Part shown: one piece after another, positions 2,960 through 30,141 of the stretch
Position numbering within the stretch: position 1 is the stretch's first letter
Layout of the letters: every line of letters begins with the position of its first letter
Sequence record: MZ358387
Source of the DNA: Shigella virus Moo19
Reading direction: 5' to 3' (one strand)
DNA length: 64,000 bases
Notes under the pieces: model-generated
Databases searched by the model: none
What the model was told of the DNA's origin: nothing
Seen by the model: the letters and a program-made list of their open reading frames with translations, nothing else
Made by a program: the position numbers and the translations under genes

Positions 2960-3788
2960 ATTTATTATAGGTTGTTTACTGGCAATAGTTGCAATGGCTA
3001 GTCTTACTGGTTGTTATCAACGAGTAGAGCCAGGTAATGTAGGTATTATCGTTAACCGTTTGGGTGACGATAAGGGCGTTGACCAACAAGTAAAAGGCGT
3101 AGGCCGTTACTGGATTGGTTGGAATGAAGACCTGTATACGTTCCCGACATTCAAACAGATGAAAACCTACGACGATAAGTTTTACTTCCAACTGTCGGAC
3201 GGTACTCAAATTGGCCATCAACTGGCTATCAGCTATAAGGTCAACCCGACCAAAGTAGCGACCATCTTCCAGACCTACCGTAAAGGTGTCGATGAAATCA
3301 CTGACCAGGATTTACGTCAGCGTATTGCCGATATCCTGAACCGTCAGGGTAACCTGATTAACACTGACAAGTTCATTGACGGTGGTAAGTCACGTTTGCT
3401 GGATAGTGTAGCTGATGCAGTTAAAAAAGAGATGGAGCCAGTCGGTATCGACATTATGGCTATCTCCTGGGTAGGTGCACCGGAATACCCGGACAACGTG
3501 AAGCGTGCAATTAACGCGAAAGTTGAAGCTACCCAGAAAACCCTGCAACGTGAGCAAGAAGTGCAACAGCGTATCGCTGAAGCAAATATGGCTCGTGAGC
3601 AAGCCAAAGGTGAAGCTGATGCCGTAGTACTGAAAGCAAAAGCAGAAGCTGATGCTATTAAGCTGCGTGGTGATGCACTTCGTGAAAACCCTGGTGTAAT
3701 GGAACTGGAAGCAATCAACAAGTGGAATGGTGTATTACCAACCACAATGATTCCAGGTGCAGCCACACCATTTGTGCCTGTTAAATAA
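2952..3788 (+). CDS. SPFH/band-7 (HflC/prohibitin-like) domain lipoprotein
   Basis: ATG 2952. Signal peptide with canonical lipobox 'MRKFIIGCLLAIVAMASLTGC'. SPFH-type core followed by an Ala/Glu/Lys-rich coiled coil ('QREQEVQQRIAEANMAREQAKGEADAVVLKAKAEADAIKLRGDA'). Confidence 0.65.
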   Translation: MRKFIIGCLLAIVAMASLTGCYQRVEPGNVGIIVNRLGDDKGVDQQVKGVGRYWIGWNEDLYTFPTFKQMKTYDDKFYFQLSDGTQIGHQLAISYKVNPTKVATIFQTYRKGVDEITDQDLRQRIADILNRQGNLINTDKFIDGGKSRLLDSVADAVKKEMEPVGIDIMAISWVGAPEYPDNVKRAINAKVEATQKTLQREQEVQQRIAEANMAREQAKGEADAVVLKAKAEADAIKLRGDALRENPGVMELEAINKWNGVLPTTMIPGAATPFVPVK

Positions 3789-3794
3789 CAATAA

Positions 3795-3821
3795 AACCCC
3801 CAGACATTGCTGGGGGTTTTT
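3795..3821 (+). terminator. rho-independent terminator
   Basis: 9-bp GC-rich stem 'aacccccag'/'ctgggggtt' with loop 'acattg', followed by TTTTT. Confidence 0.75.
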
Positions 3822-3837
3822 ACGTCTGGAAAGTGTA

Positions 3838-4188
3838 ATGGAAAAGAACCGCAGGAAGACACTCATTGAGCGTCTGCTTGCCCGTATCAAGATAATGGAT
3901 ATGGGCTATACCGTTAATGGTCAGCCAAGCCTATGCCACATCTGGACTGGTTCCCACTCTGGGAATGGTCGAGGTGGTCAATATGGCAGGATTTCCGTGA
4001 ATGGAGTTACCTCTGCTACACATATTGTGGCCTATACCCACTATCACGGTTACATCCCTTGCAAAATGCAGGTAGACCATCTCTGTAATAACCGTCTGTG
4101 CTGTAACCCGGAACATCTCGAACTGGTGACTCACCAAGAGAACCAGAGAAGAAGAGCTGCACGCCAAACTAAAGGTAAAAAGAAATGA
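3838..4188 (+). CDS. HNH homing endonuclease
   Basis: Start placed at ATG 3838 because the upstream in-frame ATG lies across the terminator. Motif 'HIWTGSHSGNGRGGQYGRISVNG...VDHLCNNRLCCNPEHLELVTHQEN'. Confidence 0.7.
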   Translation: MEKNRRKTLIERLLARIKIMDMGYTVNGQPSLCHIWTGSHSGNGRGGQYGRISVNGVTSATHIVAYTHYHGYIPCKMQVDHLCNNRLCCNPEHLELVTHQENQRRRAARQTKGKKK

Positions 4189-29026: not shown

Positions 29027-29108
29027 GGGGGAGTAGTCAAGCGGTCGAAGACGGCAGACTGTAAATCTGTTATCCCACACGGTAGTTCGAATCTACCCTC
29101 CCCCACCA
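29027..29108 (+). tRNA. tRNA-Tyr (anticodon GUA)
   Basis: 7-bp acceptor stem gggggag/ctccccc, T-loop TTCGAAT, anticodon arm 'gcagaCTGTAAAtctgt', encoded CCA. Anticodon arm resembles E. coli tRNA-Tyr as I recall it. Confidence 0.7.
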
Positions 29109-29109
29109 C

Positions 29110-29184
29110 GGTAAGTTAGCTAATTGGTGAAGCGGCTGACTGTTAATCAGTGATAGAGTGGTTCGAGTCCACTACTTACCGCCA
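29110..29184 (+). tRNA. tRNA-Asn (anticodon GUU)
   Basis: Acceptor ggtaagt/acttacc, anticodon loop 'ctGTTaa', T-arm agtgg-ttcgagt-ccact, encoded CCA. Starts 1 nt after tRNA-Tyr. Confidence 0.75.
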
Positions 29185-29189
29185 CATTA

Positions 29190-29266
29190 CGGAGTTTAGC
29201 TCAGTCTGGTAGAGCATCTGCTTTGGGAGCAGAGGGTCGTAGGTTCGAGTCCTGCAATTCCGACCA
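29190..29266 (+). tRNA. tRNA-Pro (anticodon UGG)
   Basis: Acceptor cggagtt/aattccg (one G-U), D-arm gctc...gagc, anticodon loop 'ttTGGga', T-loop ttcgagt, encoded CCA. Confidence 0.75.
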
Positions 29267-29272
29267 AACAAT

Positions 29273-29348
29273 TAGGGGTTAGTTCAGTTGGTAGAACATC
29301 GGACTTTGATTCCGAATGTCACAGGTTCGAATCCTGTACCCCTTGCCA
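29273..29348 (+). tRNA. tRNA-Gln (anticodon UUG)
   Basis: Acceptor taggggt/acccctt (1:72 mismatched), anticodon stem tcgga/tccga, loop 'ctTTGat', T-arm acagg-ttcgaat-cctgt, encoded CCA. Confidence 0.7.
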
Positions 29349-29350
29349 AA

Positions 29351-29426
29351 TGCTTCATAGCTTAGTAGGTAGAGCACACCCCTGATAAGGGTGAGGTCAT
29401 TGGTTCAAATCCAATAACGGACGCCC
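29351..29426 (+). tRNA. tRNA-Ile(GAU)-like element with no acceptor stem (possible pseudo-tRNA or non-canonical tRNA)
   Basis: Intact D-arm, anticodon arm 'cacccCTGATAAgggtg' and T-arm 'attgg-ttcaaat-ccaat', but 5' tgcttca cannot pair with 3' aacggac. Starts 2 nt after tRNA-Gln. Confidence 0.35.
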
Positions 29427-29653
29427 AATTTGGCAGTAACATAGTCCTGATTGTATAGCACTCTAAAGACAACACTGGTAAGACAGTCCAGTGGCTGCTA
29501 ATATATTGTTATTCCCCTCGACGGGAATTTCGCTGGAGAATAGGAACTCCTTAAATCCTAGCCCTGATGAAGTAGTGGACTATCAATCCATCCTCGCTCT
29601 AGTGATGAGTACTACTGAATCTGCAAGCCTCCCAGCTATGGGTAAATAGTACT

Positions 29654-29689
29654 AAGCCCCTCAGAGCCGTCACTCTGGGGGGCTTTTTT
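29654..29689 (+). terminator. rho-independent terminator closing the tRNA/ncRNA region
   Basis: About 11-bp stem ('gcccctcagag'/'ctctggggggc') followed by TTTTTT. Confidence 0.7.
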
Positions 29690-29718
29690 ATTCGAACAAT
29701 ACAAACACTGAGGAACCT

Positions 29719-30141
29719 ATGGAACTCGAACAAAAGATTAAAGAAGCTGGTGCTGATAAAGCTCCACGTATTACCCCTGACCATATCCAGAGCAAAGTAA
29801 TTGCTAAGCACTTCTTCACAGCATTAGATGGTGCATCCACTCAGATGCGTAGCGAAGATAAGTTCTCGAACCAGGAAGTACAGTCACTGTCTCTACTGAC
29901 TTTCTGTGTACTGGTTCTGGAGAATGGCTTTACTGTTACTGGTGAGTCTGCCTGTGCATCCCCGGAAAATTTCAATGAGGAAATTGGACGTAAGATTGCC
30001 TATGACAATGCAATCGATAAAGTCTGGTTGCTGGAAGGTTACCTGCTTAAGCAGAATCTCCATGAGCAAGCTCAGAGCCAGGAAATGCTGAAGGGTTTTC
30101 TGGAAAACAATGAATGTGAGGGTGGGGGCTGTAAAATATAA
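29719..30141 (+). CDS. hypothetical protein (N4 gp49-like by position)
   Basis: GAGGAA then ATG 29719. Last substantial rightward gene before the strand switch. Confidence 0.4.
   Translation: MELEQKIKEAGADKAPRITPDHIQSKVIAKHFFTALDGASTQMRSEDKFSNQEVQSLSLLTFCVLVLENGFTVTGESACASPENFNEEIGRKIAYDNAIDKVWLLEGYLLKQNLHEQAQSQEMLKGFLENNECEGGGCKI

Follow-up and report, generated by a model that had tools for sequence, protein, structure and literature searches.

The closest precedent for the locus described here comes from phage T4, in which McClain and Foss reportedly described (Cell, 1984) hybrid tRNA genes formed by unequal recombination between neighbouring genes of a cluster. The crossovers are said to have occurred at short sequences common to tRNAs, joining the front of one gene to the back of another with loss of the DNA between them. 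These hybrids were, by the same account, laboratory isolates, some of which yielded functional hybrid tRNAs. A different comparison is offered by intron-containing, split or permuted tRNA genes, in which the acceptor strands likewise do not adjoin the cloverleaf core. The bacterial and phage tRNA introns known to us are group I introns in the anticodon loop.

Here we describe a tRNA-like element of Shigella virus Moo19 that is very probably a hybrid gene, so that the kind of event is already known from T4. Unlike the T4 hybrids, the Moo19 case belongs to a natural N4-like genome, its crossover separates the two acceptor strands and its product cannot fold. Unlike intron-bearing tRNAs, the element has an intact anticodon loop and no cognate 3′ strand with CCA downstream. 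The window, as used below, is the whole 64,000-nucleotide stretch of Moo19 DNA that was analysed (record MZ358387).

Four canonical tRNAs in an N4-like genome

The window is from an N4-like podophage of the Schitoviridae, near Gamaleyavirus. A plus-strand block of RuvC-like resolvase, SSB and DUF7740 genes lies to the left of the tRNA locus. A Gp49-family gene (29719-30141) lies to the right, followed by a minus-strand open reading frame of 3,493 codons at the position where relatives annotate the virion RNA polymerase. The nearest database relative of the left flank and array is Escherichia phage Jgk1, and those of the right side are PhAPEC7, IME11, CU10EC and Bas96.

ARAGORN found exactly four tRNAs in the window (Tyr, Asn, Pro and Gln), and the Rfam tRNA model (RF00005) matched all four at full length with 59.8-69.3 bits. 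An earlier note, made from the sequence alone, had described a tightly packed array with encoded CCA ends; ARAGORN and the sequence agree, giving spacings of 1, 5 and 6 nt and a CCA in every gene (Table 1). A Rfam YrlA match spanning two tRNAs at E ≤ 10 was spurious. The promoter-like stretch upstream of the array is shared with Jgk1, in which the first hexamer is TTGATA; this presumed array promoter fell below the threshold of a sigma-70 consensus scan, which made no call there. An intrinsic terminator closes the tRNA-plus-RNA unit.

Table 1 Features of the tRNA locus and the downstream RNA (window coordinates)
Feature	Position	Strand	Basis or remark
Promoter-like TTGCAC, 18 nt, TATAAA	28988-29018	+	Putative; upstream of array; read by eye
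tRNA-Tyr (GTA), CCA encoded	29027-29108	+	ARAGORN; Rfam 62.2 bits
tRNA-Asn (GTT), CCA encoded	29110-29184	+	ARAGORN; Rfam 59.8 bits
tRNA-Pro (TGG), CCA encoded	29190-29266	+	ARAGORN; Rfam 66.2 bits
tRNA-Gln (TTG), CCA encoded	29273-29348	+	ARAGORN; Rfam 69.3 bits
Fifth element, 5′ end tgcttca	29351-29357	+	
Fifth element, D arm	29360-29375	+	
Fifth element, anticodon arm, loop CTGATAA, anticodon GAT	29377-29393	+	
Fifth element, T arm, loop TTCAAAT	29399-29415	+	
Fifth element, aacggac after T arm	29416-29422	+	Then gccc
5′ segment of probable hybrid: 5′ acceptor strand, D arm and anticodon arm of ‘tgcttca’ phage tRNA-Ile(GAU)	29351-29393	+	Identity
Probable crossover interval GAGGTCA: variable loop and first T-stem base	29393-29399	+	Three-way comparison
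3′ segment of probable hybrid: T arm, aacggac and gccc trailer of ‘resident’ gtccgtt...aacggac family	29399-29426	+	Identity
Conserved structured RNA of N4-like phages, separate from tRNA	29432-29653	+	Alignment of 23 homologues, covariation, per-sequence folds
P1	29432-29437/29494-29499	+	
P2	29473-29478/29488-29493	+	
P3	29511-29528	+	
P4	29535-29550	+	
Y-shaped variable domain	about 29565-29622	+	
tgaagta, chance complement in variable-domain basal stem	29568-29574	+	agtagt 29571-29576 pairs with actact 29611-29616
Loop CTATCAA in variable domain	29580-29586	+	
P6	29631-29642	+	
Intrinsic terminator	29654-29691	+	Terminator scan: 13-bp stem then T run; kept in relatives

A fifth element without an acceptor stem

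A fifth element (29351-29426) begins 2 nt past tRNA-Gln. Its inner arms are those of a canonical tRNA: a D arm, a 5-bp anticodon stem with a 7-nt loop carrying U33 and a purine at position 37, and a T loop of the GTTCRANYC type. The Rfam tRNA model matched it locally at 29358-29415 with 50.1 bits, over model positions 8-63 only, excluding the acceptor stem. Just two of the seven acceptor positions pair (1-72 to 7-66: U.C, G.A, C-G, U.G, U.C, C.A and A.A). The minimum free energy (MFE) fold had no acceptor helix and a stability no better than that of shuffled sequences (z = -0.33), and the MFE fold of the intact Jgk1 homologue is a cloverleaf. ARAGORN called no tRNA at 29351-29426. No discriminator and CCA were found at its 3′ end, where aacggac is followed by g ccc aat; the four neighbouring tRNAs all encode CCA. 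The earlier note's picture of well-formed D, GAU anticodon and T arms 2 nt after tRNA-Gln, with a tgcttca 5′ end unable to pair with aacggac, is therefore accurate. ARAGORN, which it proposed as a check, gave neither an acceptor stem nor a normal cloverleaf, and nor did the Rfam model or thermodynamic folding.

Parts of two gene families meet in the fifth element

Each half of the element has relatives of its own. The 5′ acceptor strand and D arm are the same as in a family of phage tRNA-Ile(GAU) genes with tgcttca/tgaagca acceptor strands, represented in Jgk1, in ECML-4-like 157-kb phages and in Erwinia N4-like phages. The GAU loop is also shared and the anticodon arm is closely similar, whereas the T arm (ACTGG...CCAGT), TGAAGCA 3′ strand and CCA of the family are missing from the window. 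The family has 108 matching phage records, many of them annotated as tRNA-Ile, and occurs in IMG/VR contigs as well. Two members, in a 75-kb IMG/VR contig (L035) and in Erwinia phage Frozen (L211 1588-1665), carry C33 in a CCGATAA loop; U is near-universal at position 33 of tRNAs.

The Jgk1 array has the Tyr-Asn-Pro-Gln-Ile order, the 2-nt Gln-Ile spacing and the upstream promoter-like sequence of the window. Its tRNA-Ile(GAU), like the fifth element of Moo19, stands last, 2 nt after tRNA-Gln. This gene is intact (tgcttca ... actgg ttcgaac ccagt tgaagca a cca).

The second family, which we call resident, is found in Gamaleyaviruses such as PhAPEC7, CU10EC, IME11, AN24P2 and PBM-3, where its members are annotated as tRNA Ile(AAT), Xle or Val. 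It has the acceptor strands gtccRYt/aRYggac and an (a)ccc trailer, directly behind which comes the conserved non-coding stretch also seen in the window. Resident genes (PhAPEC7, IME11, CU10EC, the ‘tRNA-Val’ of Bas96 and Jgk1) share their T arm, 3′ acceptor strand and CCC trailer with the fifth element, and both lie immediately upstream of the conserved RNA; the resident 5′ acceptor strand (gtccRYt), D arm and anticodon region are missing from the window. To ask whether the array had been inserted inside a resident gene, we searched the whole window for the resident 5′ half, GTCCGTTTAGCT, allowing up to 2 mismatches, and found chance-level matches only, far from the locus.

Jgk1 carries both genes intact, in the same order and orientation (locus L004: tRNA-Ile at 2770-2845 and the resident gene at 3895-4024), with AGGTC sites 1,183 bp apart on the same strand. 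We used these two genes for a three-way comparison. Over 29351-29393 the window matches the Jgk1 tRNA-Ile(GAU) at 37/43 positions but the Jgk1 resident gene at 11/43. Over 29399-29422, the T arm and 3′ strand, the relation is reversed: 24/24 positions agree with the resident gene (attgg ttcaaat ccaat aacggac) and 14/24 with tRNA-Ile. The trailer (29423-29460) follows the resident gene as well (32/38 versus 12/38). Identity thus switches sharply at 29393-29399, within GAGGTCA, a sequence present in both Jgk1 genes and in the window.

The element is a mosaic by identity, with its break at GAGGTCA, intact parents in tandem in a relative and a missing acceptor helix. We conclude that it is very probably a hybrid, made by recombination, of the 5′ two-thirds of a tRNA-Ile(GAU) and the back third of another tRNA-type gene. 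Its acceptor strands do not pair because they come from different genes.

Such a history differs from one suggested earlier, that of a decayed pseudo-tRNA. The element is very probably a pseudo-tRNA, as that suggestion had it, but decay by point mutation does not account for it. Arms like those of a tRNA with a broken stem are what an ordinary tRNA-Ile(GAU) with mutations in its 3′ acceptor strand would leave. To arrive at the sequence of another gene, however, seven or more substitutions would have been needed that rebuilt its T arm and 3′ strand base for base (24/24) and its trailer as well (32/38), and we regard this origin as extremely improbable. Because the T arm and 3′ strand are identical to those of another gene, the 3′ end has been swapped and not eroded.

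Recombination or assembly

The true parents are missing from the databases, and Jgk1 is a proxy for them: its tRNA-Ile differs at 6/43 positions, the best database match to the 5′ part of the hybrid reaches 88-90%, and its downstream RNA diverges from that of the window after about 29500, the window version being of the PhAPEC7 type. Because Jgk1 is only a stand-in, we infer both the direction of the event and its single-step nature. At the junction, Jgk1-type parents have only 7 nt in common, little for homologous recombination; with a parent whose T arm was more similar, the stretch would be longer.

We did not find the exact junction in INPHARED, IMG/VR, JGI metagenomes or GTDB genomes. A scan of IMG/VR with a 29-mer across the junction gave zero matches. 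The metagenome and genome scans used a permissive 24-mer pattern, which matched at least 111 metagenome loci and 44 genome loci; the matches inspected were ordinary bacterial tRNA-Ile(GAU) genes, none of which carried tgcttca as its 5′ strand, had the 3′ strand of the resident gene or was accompanied by the downstream RNA. As the junction is unique among the collections searched, the event looks recent and private to the Moo19 lineage.

The same uniqueness would be expected if the genome really had both genes intact, about 1 kb apart, and an assembler jump had linked their similar variable-loop and T-arm sequences; that Jgk1, the closest array-bearing relative, has both genes intact also fits this explanation. 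However, with parents like those of Jgk1 the identity extends over just 7 nt, much less than the k-mer of any assembler; for about 24 nt, the real tRNA-Ile would need a T arm of the resident type. Other dispensable parts of the Jgk1 island are missing from the window too, one of them through a clean loss of 96 nt at a 10-nt repeat, and the other island RNAs could not be traced anywhere in the 64 kb; such a pattern fits a genuinely reduced locus. We consider an assembly artefact unlikely. The earlier note had foreseen that an intact tRNA-Ile in relatives might expose a simple sequencing or assembly error; Jgk1 does have such a gene, but what separates it from the window is a gene fusion with about 1.2 kb missing and not a base-calling error.

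No tRNA interrupted by an insertion

The earlier note had further proposed a tRNA interrupted by an insertion, pointing to a downstream tgaagta complementary to the 5′ end. The heptamer exists, at 29568-29574 and not at 29566-29572 as given there, and pairs with tgcttca with one G.U, so that it could in principle be the 3′ acceptor strand of a tRNA-Ile with inserted sequence or an intron, about 145 nt long, behind its T arm. We found nothing else expected of such a gene: no downstream cognate 3′ strand with discriminator and CCA, kept in relatives. A 7-mer complement with at most one G.U arises in 7.5% of shuffles of 29427-29700, no discriminator or CCA follows tgaagta, and the 7-mer is absent from the homologues of the downstream RNA in a 23-homologue alignment, being paired in Moo19 within that RNA's own variable hairpin. 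The supposed insert is itself an autonomous conserved RNA, present without this tRNA in about 90 phage records, and the resident gene itself has aacggac, here next to the T arm, as its native 3′ strand. Six intact homologues from the tgcttca family were examined, and each of them has TGAAGCA adjoining the T arm. We therefore reject an interrupted tRNA, to which we assign next to no probability.

Proposed origin of the hybrid and remodelling of the tRNA island

Short-homology recombination is the simplest history for the hybrid. A crossover at the common GAGGTCA would have joined the 5′ two-thirds of tRNA-Ile(GAU) to the resident T arm and 3′ strand, the recombining genes being tandem, on the same strand, both of Ile type and with similar T arms. 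On a deletion path, about 1.2 kb between the two genes would have been lost; equivalently, the array cassette might have been acquired, with one crossover inside the resident gene.

Two further comparisons show that such rearrangements are routine in the tRNA island. In Jgk1, a tRNA-like element of 96 nt (L004 2596-2691; gcgtcgt...gcggcgt acca) separates tRNA-Pro from tRNA-Gln; its anticodon region is aberrant, and the 10-nt direct repeat accaaacaat bounds it on both sides. Exactly at this repeat the element is missing from the window, an independent precedent for short-repeat rearrangement within the same array. The same 96-nt element occurs at another position in L050 (IMG/VR), directly upstream of the conserved RNA.

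The second comparison concerns anticodon arms. In Bas96 (L031 648-732), pSb-1 (L047) and 158-kb IMG/VR phages (L036/L037), the 17-nt anticodon arm is replaced by a 30-nt module, CAGGARAGCTTCGRRAGAACAAGGTGYCTG, and in the Jgk1 gene at L004 3895-4024 by 75 nt; these scaffolds keep normal acceptor, D and T arms. An almost identical replacement of about 30 nt (CAGGAAAGCTTCGAGAGAACAAGGTGTCTG and a close variant) is carried by resident-type scaffolds in Bas96 and pSb-1 and by tgcttca-type scaffolds in L036 and L037, that is, by two unrelated acceptor families. Its presence on both scaffold types indicates that segments have been exchanged at the same D-arm and variable-loop boundaries.

The relatives hold more RNAs of this general kind. 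An island of about 1 kb that is missing from the window (L004 2846-3890 in Jgk1, L039 1100-2190 in KP8 and L041 in Kpn16-P2) contains a tmRNA-like sequence, matched by the Rfam tmRNA_permuted model at 34.7 bits, which does not reach the gathering score. A frame in the island that might be a tag, GCAAACGATGATGTTGTTCTGATGGCTGCTTAA, would encode ANDDVVLMAA*. Several more RNAs with acceptor/T-arm ends, not called by ARAGORN, belong to the same island. An extra RNA, some 100-130 nt long, is found shortly before the resident tRNA or the conserved RNA in PhAPEC7 (L001, about 1335-1450), Jgk1 (L004, about 3765-3890) and OLB145, an isolate of the N4 species (L209, about 797-895). Its ends pair like an acceptor stem, for example TGAGTCA...TGACTCA-CC or TGAACCA...TGGTTCA-CC, with a T-arm-like hairpin beside the 3′ strand. 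In the window itself we found no tmRNA, either with ARAGORN or with Rfam at the gathering threshold, and the tag-like sequence of the Jgk1/KP8 island is missing.

Predicted fate of the hybrid transcript

Transcription probably runs through the four good tRNAs, the hybrid and the downstream RNA and stops at the terminator. Because the acceptor strands of the hybrid cannot pair, its RNA would lack the acceptor/T-arm helix on which RNase P, CCA maturation, IleRS and EF-Tu depend. Established tRNA biology implies that the transcript should not be a substrate for RNase P, 3′-end maturation, IleRS or EF-Tu, and we infer that the hybrid has lost its function and is, for translation, a dead tRNA. Both Ile-type genes would in effect be lost to Moo19. 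The hybrid would stay as a structured spacer between tRNA-Gln and the downstream RNA, and might impair the 3′ maturation of tRNA-Gln and the 5′ definition of the downstream RNA.

A conserved structured RNA follows the hybrid

The stretch that begins 6 nt past the hybrid (29432-29691 with the terminator) is an undescribed structured RNA family, more novel than the hybrid itself. We aligned 23 distinct homologues. Proposed pairs are formed in 97.8% of cells and 9/18 pairs have changed on both sides, a covariation score that 0/500 shuffles reached and that collapses when the register is slid. All five core pairs of P1 have been replaced in the phiG17/ECBP1/pSb-1 group, and the G.U pairs fit the plus strand only. 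P3, whose 3′ strand MAFFT misaligns between sequence types, was left out of the score and is supported by sequence inspection. The stems of the variable domain differ completely in sequence between phages but keep their shape, and the base of the terminator stem (ACUAAGYCC) is itself conserved.

The RNA is present in about 90 phage records, including an isolate of Enquatrovirus N4, and is annotated in almost none. It is typically preceded by Ile-type tRNA or tRNA-like genes and followed by the terminator and a gp49-family gene. In some phages the 5′ domain and the 3′ module are found apart. In the Salmonella N4-like phages TR2 (L210 685-861) and FSL SP-076 (L212, about 2236-2410), the 3′ module follows a conserved small open reading frame (MR[YF]I.MN.GPNR.ERR...NFFFPA) and not the 5′ domain. 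A 17-mer scan of IMG/VR for the RNA returned 26 loci, 8 of them useful, most matches being to the Walker-A coding sequence of an unrelated phage gene.

No Rfam family matches the RNA, and at E ≤ 10 we obtained terminator-driven noise only. No T-box match was found in 29432-29691 even at E ≤ 10, and the AUC-bearing motif lies in a terminal 7-nt loop, whereas the T-box specifier lies in an internal loop of stem I. A coding reading was also rejected: the open reading frame at 29491-29649 has no Pfam or PHROG match, and homologues are set apart by large indels whose lengths are not divisible by three. A literature search on tRNA-like or non-coding RNAs of N4-like phages and Gamaleyavirus found nothing on the locus or the downstream RNA.

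An invariant loop and a possible link to tRNA-Ile

The loop CUAUCAA of the variable domain recurs on covarying stems in L001, L003, L004, L035, L039-L041, L210 and L212. The variants seen were CCAUCAA in KP8 and L009, UUAUCAA in TR2 and CUAUCCC in Erwinia phage Frozen. Within it, UAUCA is complementary at every base to UGAUA, positions 33-37 in the anticodon loop of tRNA-Ile(GAU). This complementarity may be coincidental, and since the loop is invariant, covariation cannot test its pairing. The RNA forms a conserved, modular family in the Schitoviridae (N4, Gamaleyavirus, Kaypoctavirus and Salmonella and Erwinia N4-like phages), and its loop displays the Ile codon AUC. A doubtful possibility is that it is a tRNA-Ile-binding regulatory RNA, which might act as a kissing-loop sensor or sponge. 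If so, the hybrid would tether a GAU anticodon arm in cis to the downstream RNA.

The near-invariance of the loop across homologues also bears on whether the hybrid works as a tRNA-like RNA module and not as a decoder. Such a module might serve the downstream RNA as its 5′ leader or in its processing, draw off host anticodon nucleases with a decoy anticodon arm, or act in cis as partner to the CUAUCAA loop. The intact D, anticodon and T arms (50.1 bits) are consistent with such a role. So is the behaviour of resident relatives, which keep acceptor, D and T arms around a freely replaced anticodon arm (17, 30 or 75 nt), suggesting that some elements of the resident family are not decoders. On the other side, the fusion is known from one genome only and so gives no sign of selection, the acceptor/T helix is the very part that is conserved in relatives and lost in the window, and the anticodon-loop complementarity is a post-hoc 5-nt match. 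A working module of this sort is accordingly improbable, and we favour a non-functional hybrid.

Implications for phage tRNA islands

The probable hybrid of Moo19 offers a clean natural example of how a phage tRNA island is remodelled, in which recombination at the few bases common to all tRNAs can move, delete or fuse RNA genes; here it would have inactivated two isoleucine-type genes at once. For annotation, tRNA matches at the end of an array that are only half complete should be compared with both neighbouring gene families before an intron or a novel element is called. The island of tRNA-like and tmRNA-like genes in relatives, exposed via the hybrid, merits a study of its own. The larger payoff from resolving the hybrid is the downstream RNA, a covariation-supported structured RNA carried in roughly 90 records of N4-like phages.
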